Shown here: positions 15,888-22,387 of the stretch, piece after piece
Position numbering within the stretch: position 1 is the first letter of the stretch
Layout of the letters: every line of letters starts with the position of its first letter
From: Candidatus Hodarchaeota archaeon
GTDB taxonomy: Archaea; Asgardarchaeota; Heimdallarchaeia; Hodarchaeales; Hodarchaeaceae
Assembly: GCA_016839815.1 (NCBI GenBank)
Contig: JAEOTM010000102.1
Location: 1-43,872 of the forward strand
DNA: 43,872 bases
Reading direction: 5' to 3'
Notes under the pieces: model-generated
The model's database searches: none
What the model was told of the DNA's origin: nothing
What the model saw: the letters and a program-made list of their open reading frames with translations, nothing else
Program-made: the position numbers and the translations under genes

Positions 15888-15920
15888 AAAAAAAAAGAGG
15901 AGCTAACTATCGTCAGCTCC
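15888..15920 (-). terminator. Hairpin plus U-tract terminator of 15930..16451
   Basis: Minus strand reads GGAGCTGAC-GATA-GTTAGCTCC (9-bp stem, one G-U) followed by TC-T9. Confidence 0.75.
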
Positions 15921-15929
15921 AATTATCAT

Positions 15930-16451
15930 TTAATAAAGGAAACCCCTTACGTAAATGTCCCCCTGTAACCCTACATCTGGAGCACCAGGACCCCAGAATA
16001 TACCTCGTCCATTAAGGTTTTCTAATTCTCCTGTTCCACTTTCAATTAACCATTGACCGTCCCATTCGGAAAATCCATCGGGTCTTGAACCCCAAAAATA
16101 CATCAATAAGGTCCCTGATTCCCCGTTGACTTCACCCTCAAAAAAGACAAAACCAACAACCGACCATGCTCCAGAAGCAGATATCACTACAACATCTTGT
16201 TCTGTCGATGTCCCTTCAAAAGTTCCTGACCAAACTGCATCCTCTCTTGTCCTCATAATCGTATCGCCATTTATAACCTGTACATCTAGAATCTCAGGTG
16301 TATATTGCCAAAGGCTATTGGCAAATGTAAACCTATGTCTCCCAACTCTGCCTGCATTAGCGGATAATAAGGGTGCGACTAATACAATGAGAAACAGGGA
16401 AAATAAGAAAACCTGTGCTTTTTTATTAACTTTAATCTTATTCACATCCAA
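15930..16451 (-). CDS. Secreted beta-barrel protein, DUF3224/allene-oxide-cyclase-like
   Basis: Signal peptide ending LSANA; WSGTFEGTS, FEGEVNGESGTL and GTGELENLNGRG motifs. Confidence 0.65.
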   Translation of the reverse strand: MDVNKIKVNKKAQVFLFSLFLIVLVAPLLSANAGRVGRHRFTFANSLWQYTPEILDVQVINGDTIMRTREDAVWSGTFEGTSTEQDVVVISASGAWSVVGFVFFEGEVNGESGTLLMYFWGSRPDGFSEWDGQWLIESGTGELENLNGRGIFWGPGAPDVGLQGDIYVRGFLY

Positions 16452-16480
16452 ATTTCAATCTCAATTAAGATACAATTTAC

Positions 16481-16529
16481 ATTACATCTTAATAGTTACT
16501 ATTGTATCATAATAACATTTATAAGTTTT
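16481..16529 (-). promoter_or_regulatory. Promoter/operator element copy A (BRE-TATA plus palindrome)
   Basis: 39/49 ungapped identity to 18975..19023. Minus-strand AAAC-TTATAAAT TATA-like box; perfect AATAGT-N-ACTATT palindrome at 16491..16503. Confidence 0.7.
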
Positions 16530-16599
16530 ACCATAGTTAATGAAATGCTATACATAAAAATACCTATAACAATTAACAACCAATATTATTTTACGAAGG

Positions 16600-17172
16600 T
16601 TGAATTGCGTTTCTTTTGTTGAGAAATGGTGCAATCCCATGGCTAAAGACGATGAGAAACTACAAAAGCTACCCATCCGAGTAGATCTTGATGATGAAGA
16701 CGCAAAAAAGTTTAAGTACATTCAAAATAATTTTAAATTGAAGAACAAAGCTGAAGTTTTACGTTTTTGTGTTAATAAAGTCTATCATGGGATAGCGTTA
16801 GAAATTGATAACGATATGTACAACGAAATTCATAAGATCATTTCTAGTAAATCAATAAAGATCAAGTACGCAATAACCAGTGTTGATGATTTCATTAAAC
16901 GCGCAATGAGCGAATTTTTGACTATATTGAAAGAAGAATGGAGTCTACGAAATTGGAATATGCGACAAACCCTTTCTGAAGAAGAGAATGATACTGCTTT
17001 AGCACTTCTTGAATTACAACTTCAAAAAATGCCAGGAGTCACCATTGAGGATTTAGCTCGGCACATGAAGAAAGATAAAGATCTGTTAACCAAACATCTT
17101 GAAAAATTCATGACAGATGCACTCCTCGATTTTAGAGAGTCTCATGGTAAGATTTATTATTATGTCCAATGA
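16600..17172 (+). CDS. DNA-binding protein: two ribbon-helix-helix-like units plus C-terminal winged HTH (likely start ATG 16639)
   Basis: IRVDLDDEDAKKF...NKAEVLRFCV (CopG-like), LEIDNDMYNEI...SVDDFIKRAMSEF, then VTIEDLARHMKKDKDLLTKHLEKF...GKIYYY. Confidence 0.65.
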   Translation: MNCVSFVEKWCNPMAKDDEKLQKLPIRVDLDDEDAKKFKYIQNNFKLKNKAEVLRFCVNKVYHGIALEIDNDMYNEIHKIISSKSIKIKYAITSVDDFIKRAMSEFLTILKEEWSLRNWNMRQTLSEEENDTALALLELQLQKMPGVTIEDLARHMKKDKDLLTKHLEKFMTDALLDFRESHGKIYYYVQ

Positions 17173-17942
17173 CAAATGAAAAATTGGGTATTGATTTCAT
17201 GAAAAAAATTCTCATTCATAGTTATAAAGGTGGTACAGGTAAAACTACGGTAGCTGTTAATCTAGCTAGTATCCTGTCGCAGAATACGAAAGTTCTTTTA
17301 ATAGAAAATGATTTCAGTATGCCCTCCTTTGTTAATATCTTTAAACACGAACCAAATGCTTTTTTCAATGATTTTTGTACTGGAAGTGCAACTTTTAGCG
17401 AAATAATTCAGTCTAATCTCAAACCAAGTCTAGATATAATCTTTGCTGACACTCAATTTAATCCTTCAGCAGAGATTATGGGATCAAATCAAGCATGGTT
17501 CCTTAAACTACTAGAGAAGATGATGGAAAATCTCAAAGCATGTGAAGAGATATACGAGTATGTCATTTTTGATACACCACCAGGATGGCAACTCATCCTT
17601 GTCAATCTGATTGCTTTAGCAAATGTGGCAATTCTCCTGCTTAGACCCAATTCATATGAAGTAATGGGTACTAAAAGATTGATAGAAATCCTTTACAAGA
17701 GAGCAAAACCATCAATGAATTTCGATGTAAATCTTCTTTTCAATCAAGTACCAGAAGTAGATATGATAAAAGATCTCGAGGGATGGGCGGAAGAACTTCA
17801 AATTGAAGGAATAAGTTATTTAGGTCACATTTCTTGCTCATGTCAGACGGCCTATGAGATGGCACATGAGACAACAATATTTCCCCTTGAACATGAATTT
17901 TCTCAATCATTACAACAAGTTATAAGTAATTTAAAGATATAA
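17169..17942 (+). CDS. ParA/MinD family ATPase
   Basis: Deviant Walker A HSYKGGTGKTT, VLLIEND, Walker B YVIFDTPPG, LLFNQV; ATGA overlap with the upstream gene. Confidence 0.92.
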   Translation: MTNEKLGIDFMKKILIHSYKGGTGKTTVAVNLASILSQNTKVLLIENDFSMPSFVNIFKHEPNAFFNDFCTGSATFSEIIQSNLKPSLDIIFADTQFNPSAEIMGSNQAWFLKLLEKMMENLKACEEIYEYVIFDTPPGWQLILVNLIALANVAILLLRPNSYEVMGTKRLIEILYKRAKPSMNFDVNLLFNQVPEVDMIKDLEGWAEELQIEGISYLGHISCSCQTAYEMAHETTIFPLEHEFSQSLQQVISNLKI

Positions 17943-17990
17943 ACTTCTTATTAGAATTATTTTGTCAAAAAAAGGAAGTAATGGAGTTTT

Positions 17991-18917
17991 CTATCGTCTC
18001 CGCTTACTTATGTGGTAAATGCTAACCATAACGATAACTAAAACTACTCCAAGATCTAATCCAGTAGTCTCACGTGTGGAGGTTATAGTAGTAGTTGTAT
18101 CCACAGAAGTTGGTGGTGCGTCTGTAGACGTTTCGGTGGGTGTTGTAGTGGTTGTCGTAGTAGGTGATAGATGATCTTCAACAGTAAGATTATCGAATGA
18201 AATTTCTCCTTCAAATAAAGCAAACTCAAAAATTTCTGATGTAGTGATTTCATTATTAGTAACTTGAAATAAGCGTTCTGAATCAAGATCGACACTAAAT
18301 TCTCCTGAAGGAAATTTACGTGTAATGTTCATATGATGGGAACCCACCAAATCATTAGGGGAAGAGGGACGGTACATCCAGAGAGCTTCATAAATATCGA
18401 AGTCGCCCTGTGTGTGGTGTTCTCTTCCAATCCAGAGCCATAAAGATATTGTATTTTCTCCCAACCAAAACGCTTTTCCAGGTGAGATATAAATGATGTA
18501 TGACTTCATAGCGGCTTTAAGCTCTTGGTACGTTATTCCTGTTAGGTCAATGTTATCCCCACCATAATTGTTCCCAATGAACATTATCCCAAAAACAGTC
18601 TTATCAATCTGATCATTAGCTATATGGAAGTCAAAACTCCAGGTTCCATACGCTACTGAGCTATTATGAATAGCATCAGCTAACATTTGACAATTTGGAA
18701 GTGGTGCTTGCATGTTTAAGGATCCATTAGTAATAATTGGGGTATAATTCATTGGTTGAAATGGGTCGACATATCCTCCAGCATCATAACTGAGTAGAAA
18801 CCAATCGTCATAGGGCGGATTCTCGAAGTCCTCGTCCCATACAAGAACAGCAGAAGTTTGGTTTATAGTTGAGATAAGAATTAGAATTACCAAGCTTAAT
18901 ATCAAGTTTTTTTTCAT
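17991..18917 (-). CDS. Secreted/surface protein (ConA-like beta-sandwich) with Thr-rich linker and C-terminal anchor
   Basis: Signal peptide; VWDEDFE...AYGTWSFDF...ISFDNLTV; poly-Thr; hydrophobic tail plus KRRR. Confidence 0.75.
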   Translation of the reverse strand: MKKNLILSLVILILISTINQTSAVLVWDEDFENPPYDDWFLLSYDAGGYVDPFQPMNYTPIITNGSLNMQAPLPNCQMLADAIHNSSVAYGTWSFDFHIANDQIDKTVFGIMFIGNNYGGDNIDLTGITYQELKAAMKSYIIYISPGKAFWLGENTISLWLWIGREHHTQGDFDIYEALWMYRPSSPNDLVGSHHMNITRKFPSGEFSVDLDSERLFQVTNNEITTSEIFEFALFEGEISFDNLTVEDHLSPTTTTTTTPTETSTDAPPTSVDTTTTITSTRETTGLDLGVVLVIVMVSIYHISKRRR

Positions 18918-18974
18918 TTTTCCTCTTAACTCACTTTTACCTCATAATAAATGTATAGACAATATCAGAATTCT

Positions 18975-19023
18975 ATTATATCCTAATACTTACTATTGTA
19001 AAATAATAGCACATATAAACTTT
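18975..19023 (-). promoter_or_regulatory. Promoter/operator element copy B
   Basis: 39/49 identity to 16481..16529. Minus-strand AAAGT-TTATATGT TATA-like box; AATACTTACTATT palindrome with one mismatch. Confidence 0.7.
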
Positions 19024-19125
19024 GTGATATTAATTGCTAGGTAAACTTTAATCCTATCTTCCTTACTAAAAGATTTTAGACTGGATAAGAATCATTTTCA
19101 GTCCAAGAGATTGAGGTCAAGTCAT

Positions 19126-20577
19126 ATGCCTTTGAAAACGCCAGAAGAATACTTAGAAAGTATCAAGCGAGAAACTAACTTGTATATGTTTGGAGAAAGA
19201 ATTTCCAAGTTCTGGGACCATCCATATTATAAAATCATTGAACCTTCCATAAACACTGTAAAAAAGATTTATGAATTAGCACAACAGGATGAATTCAAAT
19301 ATCTAATGACTGCGCAGTCTCATTTAACTGGTAAAATTGTTAACCGTTTCACACATATCCATCAATCCATTGACGATTTACTATTAAAAGTTGAAATGCA
19401 ACGTTTGTTAGGGCAGAAAACCGCTTGTTGCTTTCAACGATGTGTTGGTTTTGATGCTGCTAATGCGCTTTACAGTATTACCTGGGAAATTGATAATAAG
19501 TTTAAAAGTGATTATCACAGTAGATTCAAAGATTATTGGATTGAAATTCAAGAGAATGATCTTTTTGTTGCAGGTAGTATGACTGATTCAAAAGGAGATC
19601 GAGGTAAACGACCCATTGATCAAACCGATCCTGATGCGTTTTTACATATTGTTGATGAGAATAATAAAGGGATTTTTGTATCAGGAGCTAAAGTTCATCA
19701 AACTGGATTTTTGAACTCTCATCAAGCTATCGTTATGCCTACATTAGCATTACGGAAGGGAGAAGAAGCTTACGCGGTAAGTTTTGGAATTGATACTACA
19801 GCTAAAGGTCTCACGATGGTCTATGGTAGGCAAACCTCCGATACTCGAAAACTAGAAGAAGGCATTCTTGATATTGGAAACTTTAAATATGGGGGCCAAG
19901 AAATTTTTGTCATTTTTGATAACGTTTTTGTACCAAATAAACAAATCTTCATGAAAGGAGAAACAGAGTTCACTGGAGGTCTTGTGAATCGATTCGCAGG
20001 CTATCATAGACAATCTTATGCATGTAAAACTGGTGTCGGAGATGTACTCATTGGTGCAGCAGCATTGATAGCACGATATAATGGAGTAGAGAAAGCTTCT
20101 CACATCAGGGATAAGCTTGTAGAAATGATTCATCTGAATGAAACTTTATGGAGCTGCGCAGTGGCTTGCTCCACTAAGGGTTTCAAACGTGATGCGGGTA
20201 ATTATGAGATGGATATGCTTTTAGCCAATGTAAATAAGCAAAATGTTACAAGATTTCCATACGAGATTGGGAGGTTAGCTGAAGATTTAGCAGGAGGGAT
20301 TATTTGCACATTGCCAAGTCAGCAAGATATGGAAAATCCAGACATTGGTTCTCTTATTCAAAAATATTTGTCAACCTGCGCTGATGTACCAGTAAATGAT
20401 AGGTATAAACTCCTACGGTTTATTGAGAATCTTTCCATGGGTGTAGCGTCCTTAAGTTATAAAACTGAATCTTTACATGGAGCTGGCTCTCCTCAAGCCC
20501 AACGAATCATGATTTCCAGGCAAGCAAATCTTGAAGACAAAATCAATCTGGTTAAAGAGATCTTAGATCTATCTTAG
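19126..20577 (+). CDS. abfD: 4-hydroxybutyryl-CoA dehydratase / vinylacetyl-CoA isomerase
   Basis: QKTACCFQRCVGFDA (CX3C), MTDSKGDR, YHRQSYACKTGVGD, ESLHGAGSPQAQRI; ATG at 19126 (the track starts at TTG 19111). Confidence 0.88.
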   Translation: MPLKTPEEYLESIKRETNLYMFGERISKFWDHPYYKIIEPSINTVKKIYELAQQDEFKYLMTAQSHLTGKIVNRFTHIHQSIDDLLLKVEMQRLLGQKTACCFQRCVGFDAANALYSITWEIDNKFKSDYHSRFKDYWIEIQENDLFVAGSMTDSKGDRGKRPIDQTDPDAFLHIVDENNKGIFVSGAKVHQTGFLNSHQAIVMPTLALRKGEEAYAVSFGIDTTAKGLTMVYGRQTSDTRKLEEGILDIGNFKYGGQEIFVIFDNVFVPNKQIFMKGETEFTGGLVNRFAGYHRQSYACKTGVGDVLIGAAALIARYNGVEKASHIRDKLVEMIHLNETLWSCAVACSTKGFKRDAGNYEMDMLLANVNKQNVTRFPYEIGRLAEDLAGGIICTLPSQQDMENPDIGSLIQKYLSTCADVPVNDRYKLLRFIENLSMGVASLSYKTESLHGAGSPQAQRIMISRQANLEDKINLVKEILDLS

Positions 20578-20680: not shown

Positions 20681-22387
20681 ATGAAATTTAAATATCTTAA
20701 AATAATTCTAATAATACTTTTAATTCCTGTCTCTACTGGATTATTGATGACCGTTGGTGTTAGTAAGCCAACAGACCAATCAATTACTTCTGAATTAATT
20801 TATTCAAGTTTTTTAGGTTCAAGTAATACTGATGCCTGTCATGATATAGTAATAGATAGTTATAACAATATTTACCTGTCGGGTTGTACTCATTCGAGCG
20901 ATTTTCCAACGACTTTAAATGCTTATGATGAATCGTATAACGGGGGAAGTGATGTATTCGTAAGTAAGATATCAGCAGATGGGTCAGAAATTATCTTCTC
21001 GACTTTTCTTGGGGGTAGTGGAGATGATTATGGAGATTATGATGTAAAATATACGGCAATTACACTAGATAGTGAAAACAATATCTATCTCCTTGGGACA
21101 ACAAGGTCGAGTGATTTTCCAACAACATCTAATGCTTATGATCAAGACCATAATGGTGAGCAAGATATTTTTATTGCGAAAATCTCCGCAAACGGATCGA
21201 AACTTCTATATTCGACGTATCTAGGTGGAATATCAAATGAGATGAGTCTTAAACTTGTACTGGATAATGCGAATAACGCTATAATCGCAGGACGTACAAT
21301 TTCCCCTGATTTTCCACTGGTAAATCCTTATGATTCGGCACGCTCTGGGTACGAGGGGTTTGTTGCAAAATTGTCTGCAGATGGATCAGAACTCCTGTAT
21401 TCATCCTTCATTGGTGGTGAATCCTACGACGAAGTCTGGGCACTTACAGTCGATAATGAGAACTGTATCTACATCGGTGGTACTACTGGTTCATCCGATT
21501 TTCCTATTGTGAATGCTTATGATTCAACATACGCTGGTGGTCAGGATGCTTACGTCGCAAAACTCTCTGCAAATGGATCAGAACTCCTATATTCCACATT
21601 TCTTGGTGGTTCAGGTGAAGAAAACTTAGGTGGGATTACACTAGATGGTTCAAACAATGCTTACGTTACTGGGTGGACTGGTTCGAGTAATTTTCCTGTA
21701 GTTAATGCCTATGATTCTACTTATGGTGGTGGACTTGGGGATATCTTTCTCGTGAAACTTTCTCCAGATGGTTCCGAAGCTGATTATGCCACATATTTAG
21801 GAGGCAGTGGAGACGAAATTGGGCTCAAAATTGTATTAGATGATTCGTATAATGTTTTTTTCTCAGGTACAACTTCTTCAAGTAATTTCCCTATGGTGAA
21901 TGCGTATAATGCAACATATGGTGGTGGTGAAATTCAGTATGGTAATGGTCTTGAGGTTGGCGACGGAATTATGGGAATCATGTCATCAGATGGTTCAGAA
22001 TTGTTGTATTCCACCTTCTTAGGAGGATCTGGAGTTGATGGTTGCCAATCTATCAAACTTGATGGTGATTACAACGCATACTTGGTTGGATTAACTTCCT
22101 CCTCCAACTTTCCCATCTCTTCGAATGTGTTAGATACGACATTTAATGGAGATTTTGATGCATTCATAAGTAAATTCAAAATTACAGGGATTATACCAAC
22201 TAGCACCACCACTACAACCACATCAATACCCAACACCACAACCACTCCAACGTCTACTGTGTTACAAACTACTGAGGATACAACTAGCACAACCACTACT
22301 GCTATTGGTTTTGATTTGATAACTGTTTTTGTATTTTCAGTAACCTTTGGTATTCCTGTATTATTAACTAAGAGAAAGACGCCGTGA
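20681..22387 (+). CDS. SBBP-repeat (seven-bladed beta-propeller) surface protein with Thr-rich linker and C-terminal anchor
   Basis: About 7 repeats of LxYSTFLGGSGxD...D...N.Y..G.T.SSDFP..NAYD; GAGGAGGT RBS. Confidence 0.9.
   Translation: MKFKYLKIILIILLIPVSTGLLMTVGVSKPTDQSITSELIYSSFLGSSNTDACHDIVIDSYNNIYLSGCTHSSDFPTTLNAYDESYNGGSDVFVSKISADGSEIIFSTFLGGSGDDYGDYDVKYTAITLDSENNIYLLGTTRSSDFPTTSNAYDQDHNGEQDIFIAKISANGSKLLYSTYLGGISNEMSLKLVLDNANNAIIAGRTISPDFPLVNPYDSARSGYEGFVAKLSADGSELLYSSFIGGESYDEVWALTVDNENCIYIGGTTGSSDFPIVNAYDSTYAGGQDAYVAKLSANGSELLYSTFLGGSGEENLGGITLDGSNNAYVTGWTGSSNFPVVNAYDSTYGGGLGDIFLVKLSPDGSEADYATYLGGSGDEIGLKIVLDDSYNVFFSGTTSSSNFPMVNAYNATYGGGEIQYGNGLEVGDGIMGIMSSDGSELLYSTFLGGSGVDGCQSIKLDGDYNAYLVGLTSSSNFPISSNVLDTTFNGDFDAFISKFKITGIIPTSTTTTTTSIPNTTTTPTSTVLQTTEDTTSTTTTAIGFDLITVFVFSVTFGIPVLLTKRKTP

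Follow-up and report, generated by a model that had tools for sequence, protein, structure and literature searches.

What is the function of a short DNA sequence that occurs twice around an operon for a DNA-binding protein and a ParA-type ATPase in an Asgard archaeon? The sequence lies in a 43,872-nt stretch of DNA (the window) from Candidatus Hodarchaeota archaeon (GenBank assembly GCA_016839815.1, contig JAEOTM010000102.1). Hodarchaeales are the closest known archaeal relatives of eukaryotes, and to our knowledge the ways in which Asgard archaea regulate their genes or segregate their DNA are almost wholly unknown. A preliminary description of the window reported two 49-bp copies of the sequence upstream of two unrelated secreted-protein genes, with a gene pair between them encoding a tandem ribbon-helix-helix (RHH)/winged helix-turn-helix (wHTH) protein and an ATPase with a deviant Walker A motif. 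We propose that the two copies are instances of one promoter–operator–leader module for minus-strand genes of secreted or surface proteins. Our preferred reading, to which we assign a probability of roughly 55%, is that the module defines an operator-bearing promoter regulon for secreted proteins, run by a gene pair that resembles type Ib Par systems. The genome that contains the window (G000) is a 4.24-Mb metagenome-assembled genome (MAG) with 36% G+C and 89.5% completeness; the genomes compared are MAGs throughout and their loci are related, so counts of loci are not independent. The genes and repeat copies concerned, in window coordinates, are:

15930..16451, minus strand: gene for a secreted protein with a DUF3224 domain (173 aa, TTG start, signal peptide), under module copy 1
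16481..16542: module copy 1, in which 16481-16529 are the 49 bp first described; across the genus it is kept at ~137-158 nt ahead of the regulator gene
16639..17172, plus strand: DNA-binding protein gene (177 aa; predicted disordered basic N-tail, RHH units at residues ~10-53 and ~50-105, winged helix at 103-177)
17199..17942, plus strand: ParA/MinD-superfamily ATPase gene (247 aa if counted from the conserved start; another possible ATG, at 17169, overlaps the stop codon of the gene before it)
17991..18917, minus strand: gene for Sec308, a surface-anchored secreted protein (308 aa), under module copy 2
18975..19036: module copy 2, in which 18975-19023 are the 49 bp first described

The repeat is real and unique, and lies far outside the AT-rich background. 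Realignment of 16481-16529 with 18975-19023 reproduced the gapless match (39/49 identical), and extension to 16542 and 19036 gave 46/62 identities between the copies. With blastn-short, the repeat returned just a match of E 0.9 for the 26-nt core, so we used an exhaustive ungapped scan of both strands of the 4.24-Mb assembly instead. The runner-up to either 49-mer scored only 32/49 and the runner-up to either 62-mer 38-39/62, so the pair is not an artefact of AT-richness. An nhmmer profile of the element found the two copies in G000 and no others. We also found a TATA-like box and a dyad in both copies, each of which lies upstream of a minus-strand signal-peptide gene, as had been reported; the DUF3224 protein and Sec308 have no detectable homology (BLASTP E 0.26; hhalign probability <1%). 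The copies do flank the gene pair, but this bracketing geometry is incidental, as copy 2 is merely the promoter of a gene convergent on the ATPase gene. Nor is the element confined to this locus, as the genus as a whole conserves copy 1 as the promoter that diverges from the regulator operon.

Alignment of 15 promoters in the sense of the divergent gene gave the consensus ACYAT-N-GTAAAA-N-TTATAAAT-N3-ATT-N7-(C)AAT-NN-TAA-NN-ATTAAGATATAAT. Its final 13 nt are the 5′ arm of an inverted repeat, the 3′ arm of which follows 1-9 nt further on. Read in this sense, the module therefore runs from an ACYAT half-site through a GTAAAA block resembling the transcription factor B recognition element (BRE), a TATA box and ATT/AAT triplets at 10-bp phase to a 13-bp stem-loop, and the last two triplets form a dyad, AAT-NN-TAA-NN-ATT, at the predicted start site. 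In the window, these parts and those of the regulator operon are:

16464..16493, minus strand: stem-loop of copy 1 (13 bp; arms 16464-16476 and 16481-16493; RNA loop GUAA)
16491-16503: dyad of copy 1, AATAGT-T-ACTATT, among the 10-bp-spaced ATT/AAT triplets between the TATA box and the stem-loop; putative operator
16517-16524, minus strand: TATA box of copy 1, TTATAAAT, an invariant block in the 15-promoter consensus
16525-16532, minus strand: BRE-like block of copy 1, GGTAAAAC, likewise within the invariant block
16530-16536, plus strand: ACCATAG half-site, overlapping the end of the BRE-like block
16582..16595, plus strand: proximal TATA-like block, AATATTATTTTACG
16628-16631, plus strand: Shine-Dalgarno GGTG of the regulator operon
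18961..18990, minus strand: leader hairpin of copy 2 (11 bp, 3 G·U pairs), in the same place as that of copy 1 and in another register
18985-18997: dyad of copy 2, AATACT-T-ACTATT
19012-19019, minus strand: TATA box of copy 2, TTTATATG

The stem-loop reveals the strand on which the module is transcribed. Across 12 loci, the helix cells on the sense strand of the secreted gene comprised 140 Watson–Crick pairs, 12 G·U pairs and 4 mismatches (97.4% paired), with the mismatches confined to two loop-side positions, whereas the same cells on the opposite strand comprised 140 Watson–Crick pairs, 1 G·U pair and 15 mismatches. This strand-specific G·U pattern indicates an RNA helix and therefore transcription of the region on the minus strand of the window. 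Full compensation was observed at three positions (A-U to G-C via G·U, U-A to C-G via U·G, and a U-A/A-U swap); only 2/500 column shuffles did as well as the observed helix, and slid registers paired at 34-46% only. Folding with RNAfold gave −8.4 kcal/mol for the copy 1 hairpin (z −2.7) and −11.6 kcal/mol for the copy 2 hairpin (z −1.45, which is weak); in the closest relative, G018, the copy 1 ortholog reached z −5.2 and the copy 2 ortholog was again the weaker (z −1.78). Judged from this covariation, the stem-loop is an RNA structure; it would stand at the 5′ end of the minus-strand mRNA. The 49-bp similarity had been read as a promoter/operator. The TATA box, spacer and dyad stand, and the element is supported as a promoter/operator-type module of minus-strand secreted-protein genes, but 16481-16493 is the 5′ arm of the leader stem-loop and not operator sequence; the other arm (16464-16476) lies outside the 49 bp and had been missed.

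The sole TATA box at working distance lies 24 nt upstream of the helix base. From this spacing, transcription is predicted to begin within the dyad or immediately behind it, at approximately 16493-16498 (copy 1) and 18988-18993 (copy 2) on the minus strand, so that the mRNA would open with the stem-loop. TATA-like words upstream of 764 Shine-Dalgarno-led open reading frames (ORFs) showed no sharp positional peak, and as the genome yields no general promoter geometry, the orientation of the module rests on the stem-loop instead. Three features exceed what a basic promoter and leader need: the 10-bp-spaced ATT/AAT triplets; the ACYAT half-site just upstream of the BRE, so that the TATA box is bracketed; and, in many loci, a related dyad, TATTRT-N3-ATAATR, that adjoins the proximal block. 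A repressor would be well served by sites that span the TATA box and start site along one helix face. The proximal block was kept in 17/17 loci, including those without copy-1-type sequence, and is probably the promoter of the regulator operon.

We found homologs of the DNA-binding protein in 12/21 genomes of the same genus, often in two copies and with up to three paralogs in some. For most genus loci, the stretch most similar to the 49-mer (30-44/49) is located 128-158 nt ahead of the DNA-binding gene and has the same orientation. A sequence-only covariance model built from 14 copies and run on 22 genus genomes returned the sites upstream of this gene, copy 2 in G000 and in G018, and a few orphans, amounting to 1-3 module sites per genome. 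Copy 2 was matched at E 1.5e-12 in the profile search, and its G018 ortholog fronts the first of three tandem paralogs. Matches in the genome and its relatives were thus upstream of the regulator gene or of signal-peptide genes, and the motif was not at generic promoters in the 22 genomes. The preliminary description had left open whether the locus is a regulon for secreted proteins or a partition module, and this distribution favours the former. We took the weak profile matches at three places to be doubtful: G004:C235, which falls within a long ORF, and G003:C204 and G007:C42 (other orientation). A metagenome scan contributed just five further loci. The gene divergent from the regulator operon differs between loci:

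DUF3224: G000 and G018
family B, ~180 aa: six loci and L042
family C: L026, L027 and L044
Sec308 relative, 402 aa: L025
another short-read family: L040

Among the orphan sites, two precede Sec308-family genes (G005), one a family C ('ANYGEV') gene (G021) and one a further signal-anchor protein gene (G011), and all of these genes share one orientation relative to the motif. Altogether, the module-driven genes fall into at least five families without detectable mutual homology in profile–profile comparison (hhalign probability <7%). By a crude test, all of these families, that of the DUF3224 protein included, are signal-peptide-like, as are approximately 15% of background ORFs; the chance that five or six unrelated families are all of the signal-peptide class is approximately 4e-4 if they are treated as independent. 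The module also follows the presence of a gene to drive. In three loci that lack a divergent gene (L014, L021 and L043), the module is absent and the proximal block, ATATTATTTTACG, is kept, at ~45 nt from the Shine-Dalgarno GGTG that follows it. The regulator operon is therefore served by this block, and the divergent gene by the distal module.

One exception bears on whether the module requires a dedicated regulator at all. In L016, L024 and L028, it precedes a structured leader and a protein of ~380-450 aa that has no signal peptide. The module might then be a self-contained expression signal, in which a strong promoter and a stabilising or translation-tuning 5′ stem-loop are read by general factors or an unlinked regulator, while the RHH-wHTH/ParA pair controls only itself or is unrelated. 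Consistent with this, the best-supported conserved feature is the RNA stem-loop, which requires no DNA-binding protein, and orphan copies are present without an adjacent pair. However, with so few copies per genome the module is not found at secreted genes generally, and its position and orientation beside the regulator gene are fixed over at least 12 loci and four partner families. The 10-bp-phased triplets between the TATA box and start site are, moreover, unusual for a core promoter. A distant paralog pair also repeats the layout with a different sequence: at L032:4637-4897 (G021:C180), a 24%-identical pair faces a gene for a 479-aa signal-peptide protein, and the promoter of this gene has a TATA box, an ACTAT/ATAGT dyad and an 8-bp leader hairpin. 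We therefore regard a self-contained signal as unlikely, and as slightly more doubtful than a partition system (see below).

The structured leader of the three exceptional loci is itself conserved. It spans at least ~65 nt after the module (L016:4725-4960, L024:4650-4900 and L028:4700-4920, plus strand) and consists of an outer stem, GAUGGAAG/CUUUCAUC, around a AUGAAUGG/CCAUUCAU stem and a CUCCAGAGGG loop. The element had no Rfam match and may be a new leader or small RNA.

Comparison of orthologous loci revealed which unit is variable. At the position marked by genes for a TPR protein, a SnoaL protein and the regulator pair, G000 and G018 have the DUF3224 gene, G011 and G016 have a family B gene, and G005 has nothing; the module stays while the secreted gene behind it differs. 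Such exchange, together with the arrangement of the copies as direct repeats around the pair plus one gene, raises the explanation that the repeats are the ends of a mobile or exchangeable 2.5-kb cassette, serving as recombination or attachment sites. Yet it is the secreted gene beyond copy 1 that varies, not the interval between the copies, and the G018 interval holds three extra paralogs between the same ends. The copies are ~80% identical and equally distant from orthologous copies in other species, which indicates that they are old. We found no gene for an integrase, a transposase or a recombinase near the locus in the window, and the deletion product was present in no relative. Exchange of a cassette through the repeats, which the preliminary description had raised, is thus without support and very improbable.

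We next consider the protein pair. The DNA-binding protein belonged to no family above cut-off in Pfam, NCBIfam and PDB sequence searches and had no direct Pfam RHH match; Foldseek with the full model returned only weak wHTH rows (E ~0.01). AlphaFold2 (AF2) models, with a predicted local distance difference test score (pLDDT) of 70 for the full-length protein and 78 for the N-terminal part, contained a disordered basic tail, two helix-helix units with an extended segment before each, and a C-terminal three-helix bundle with a wing. The pLDDT fell below 50 in residues 1-12 of the full-length model and 1-4 of the N-terminal model. In structural comparisons with VIA-align, residues 103-177 matched PefI, TFE-alpha and the Fur and MarR families (Z 9-10.3, rmsd 1.4-2.0 Å), in agreement with a winged-helix fold of three-helix bundle and beta-hairpin wing that can be assigned to no specific family; MarR_2 was matched by 10/25 members, though below cut-off. 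The N-terminal half matched almost exclusively RHH proteins, at modest Z scores of 4-5.7. Residues 50-105 matched ParD2, the centromere-binding protein pCXC100 ParB, PrpA, TacA, PutA and omega, and residues 7-56 matched NikR, MazE, Arc, AmrZ and SvtR. RHH proteins of the CopG/Arc/MetJ type build a two-stranded sheet from paired strand-helix-helix units. In the present protein, RHH structures were matched by the helix pairs and by the extended segments (residues 13-17 and 52-57); DSSP called no strands in the monomer models. An exhaustive profile search returned ~75 full-length cluster representatives (E ≤1e-10) as well as numerous small proteins (45-80 aa) alignable with either one of the two units, some of them Pfam RHH_1 members, which provides a transitive link. 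Structure prediction for 16639..17172 therefore agrees with the reported tandem-RHH/wHTH protein, and the RHH-RHH-wHTH architecture is supported at the fold level, without Pfam membership. In G011, a 42-residue match to the N terminus of this protein, with an in-frame TGA (L069, G011:C12:33708-33833), lies ~5 kb upstream of the intact gene and is probably a gene remnant.

The neighbouring gene encodes the expected deviant-Walker-A ATPase, with the motif KGGTGKT near its N terminus. The protein matched Pfam AAA_31 (E 7.8e-22), CbiA and ParA; its best solved relative is Soj (6iub, E 3.8e-12), and it is nearest to Soj, MinD and McdA. It resembles type Ib ParA in being a small deviant-Walker-A ParA without an N-terminal DNA-binding domain, yet it scored 55.8 bits against a cut-off of 180 for NF041546 (ParA_partition) and was under every NCBIfam cut-off. 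By its sequence, it is a divergent small ParA. Identity as MinD was rejected on family scores (TIGR01969, 44.6 bits against a cut-off of 201.75; TIGR01968 also far under its cut-off), as was identity as a BY-kinase, a name found in some records of relatives (TIGR01007, 53.2 bits against a cut-off of 108; no tyrosine in the last 25 residues). The two genes had been described as translationally coupled. An ATGA overlap is present at 17169-17172, but the conserved N terminus of the ATPase starts at 17199; that the genes form an operon is therefore safe, whereas coupling is only possible.

The gene pair is stably linked. The ATPase gene adjoins the DNA-binding gene in every locus with enough flank except for one distant paralog, and in all genus loci the DNA-binding gene comes first and the ATPase gene second. 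The two genes are also neighbours in two Heimdallarchaeia families (f1 and f5), despite a changed orientation, and among 201 sampled genomes of the phylum both protein families were confined to these two families, apart from one likely contaminant contig. On that contig (L046, G092:C48; 6 kb), a 73%-identical pair occurs in a genome of another Asgard family with 11% contamination, and is probably a Hodarchaeales binning contaminant rather than the result of gene transfer.

Such a pair could also serve DNA segregation. As a type-Ib-like partition or positioning system, the RHH-RHH-wHTH protein would be the centromere-binding adaptor, the ATPase the motor, and the module copies centromere-like sites that double as operators, as in pSM19035 omega/delta. 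The parts fit, in that a small deviant-Walker-A ATPase accompanies an RHH protein with a disordered basic N-tail. The sites number only 1-3 per genome and mostly cluster at the operon, the pair is single-copy within housekeeping synteny in the sister family f5, and promoter-overlapping sites are established for RHH ParB proteins (PMC9499535). Several observations argue the other way. Promoter and leader function accounts for every conserved part of the element; L014, L021 and L043 keep the pair without the element, so the pair does not need it; and orphan copies front secreted genes far from any pair. The pair itself is found in only 12/21 genus genomes, which are MAGs, with up to three paralogs in some. 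The two genes stand in the opposite order to that of type Ib, contiguous repeats do not occur in arrays of four or more, and in the closed genome G009 the locus lies >1.3 Mb from any Orc1/Cdc6 gene, which is weak evidence. We consider a partition system unlikely, while giving it more weight than any other alternative.

The regulon for secreted proteins is favoured because the module is absent where there is no gene to drive, is present at secreted genes away from the pair, and consists of conserved blocks that are all promoter or leader. Under this reading, copy 1 would be the conserved divergent partner promoter of the RHH-RHH-wHTH/ParA-type ATPase operon, and copy 2 would bring a second, unrelated secreted-protein gene under the same control. 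The RHH-RHH-wHTH protein would bind the phased half-sites that flank and follow the TATA box, such that initiation is blocked or tuned, and would probably act on its own promoter as well. The ParA-type ATPase may modulate this protein through its disordered basic N-tail, by analogy with omega and ParG and their type Ib ParA partners.

Several points weigh against this reading. Binding of the RHH-RHH-wHTH protein to the module is putative and is deduced from the arrangement of the sites, and the part of the ATPase in regulation is argued from analogy. The operator candidate is short and AT-rich, with conservation of the dyad limited to the outer AAT/ATT and the central TAA, and part of this conservation could reflect core-promoter or initiator needs. 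Most module copies adjoin the regulator gene, which makes the argument from adjacency partly circular, all the more so as the loci are related. G000 contains 3 further Sec308 paralogs without the module. Finally, the two genes are divergent in sister family f5, where they are surrounded by CDC48, DegV and Pelota genes and no secreted gene is close by, so that the link to secreted proteins holds in one genus only.

A bolder version of the regulon can be put forward, although we think it improbable. Here a ParA-type ATPase would have been taken from DNA partition into a transcription switch with the RHH-RHH-wHTH protein, with a portable 'expression site' composed of promoter, operator and 5′ stem-loop as its target; different secreted or surface genes would be swapped behind this site between species and copied within genomes, to give a dedicated cell-surface variation system in Hodarchaeales. 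Whichever reading holds, the locus provides a defined protein pair, a ~90-bp cis element whose DNA and RNA parts can be separated, and a short set of target genes, and with recombinant protein and synthetic DNA each of these is open to culture-free work in vitro. A regulatory role of the pair would mean that a ParA-type ATPase has been recruited to the control of secreted-protein genes, and a role in segregation would make the pair the first candidate of its kind in this lineage.

The two secreted proteins and their surroundings were also characterized. The product of 15930-16451 was assigned to DUF3224 by Pfam (E 2.7e-9), and its gene has an 83%-identical ortholog at the same position in G018. 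Sec308 has a signal peptide, a Thr-rich linker and a membrane anchor at the C terminus; a Pfam search of the window proteins assigned it to no family, and the ESM Atlas gave only a ConA/LamG-like lead. Sec308 paralogs that bear the same module occur in G005. In G018, three tandem Sec308 paralogs (L013:496-3168, G018:C253) stand in place of the one in G000, with the module only at the first, and all three may share one joint transcript. The C-terminal design of Sec308 (Thr-rich linker, one membrane helix and basic tail) is common to a beta-propeller (SBBP) protein encoded at 20681-22387. Both secreted genes end in a terminator-like hairpin and T-run on the minus strand (15899-15920 and 17983-18001), and the two hairpins have a CTATCGTC loop in common (13/16 match), which may be due to chance. 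Further neighbours are:

upstream, in order: transmembrane protein gene (minus strand), TPR protein gene (plus strand) and SnoaL/DUF4440 protein gene (plus strand), followed by the DUF3224 gene
19126-20577, plus strand: HpaB-like enzyme gene, beyond the Sec308 gene

How does this system compare with those already known? SegAB of Sulfolobales is a chromosomal archaeal system in which a ParA-like ATPase acts with an RHH-type site-specific DNA-binding protein, the sites of which adjoin the operon (PMC8682754, PMC12139799). The present pair shares this combination, to judge from the predicted folds, and its putative sites likewise lie beside the operon. In SegAB, however, the ATPase gene comes first, SegB has one RHH unit and no wHTH domain, and the system is found in other phyla. 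Membership in SegAB was rejected on sequence: neither SegB nor SegA was among the PDB chains matched by phmmer and a profile search, at E ≤10 for the DNA-binding protein or E ≤0.001 for the ATPase.

The type Ib ParABS systems (pSM19035 omega/delta, TP228 ParG/ParF and pCXC100 ParB) also pair a small deviant-Walker-A ParA lacking an N-terminal HTH with an RHH partner that has a flexible basic N-tail, a likeness that is suggested here by the AF2 models and by structure matches of modest Z (4-5.7), pCXC100 ParB and omega among them. RHH ParB proteins bind promoter-overlapping sites and touch ParA by the N terminus, and short iterated sites over several promoters are a further parallel (PMC9499535). 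Unlike the parA-then-parB order of type Ib, the DNA-binding gene is here the first of the two (divergent in f5), and its product is predicted to join two RHH units and a winged helix in one chain. The sites are phased triplets and dyads around one TATA box instead of a contiguous array of heptads or repeats, the targets are chromosomal secreted-protein genes, and there is no family membership at the sequence level.

Two RHH units per polypeptide, which could form an intramolecular pseudo-dimer, are known from TraY-type tandem RHH proteins, and the RHH relaxosome proteins TraM and NikA were among our structure matches; by contrast, the Hodarchaeales protein has no conjugation context and has an added wHTH domain. 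The operon of pNOB8 AspA-ParB-ParA has parA as its last gene, and a palindrome ahead of it is bound by a wHTH protein. ParB is a separate adaptor there, which makes three components in all, whereas the Hodarchaeales locus has one fused RHH-RHH-wHTH protein and no adaptor gene. FleN/FlhG–FleQ differs in several respects: its transcription factor family is unrelated, no flagellar genes are present here, and no homology is evident beyond the superfamily. FleN/FlhG-type MinD ATPases nonetheless modulate the transcription factor FleQ, a case of a ParA/MinD ATPase tuning a regulator of envelope and surface genes, and this system may serve as a working analogy for a regulon of secreted proteins in Hodarchaeales.

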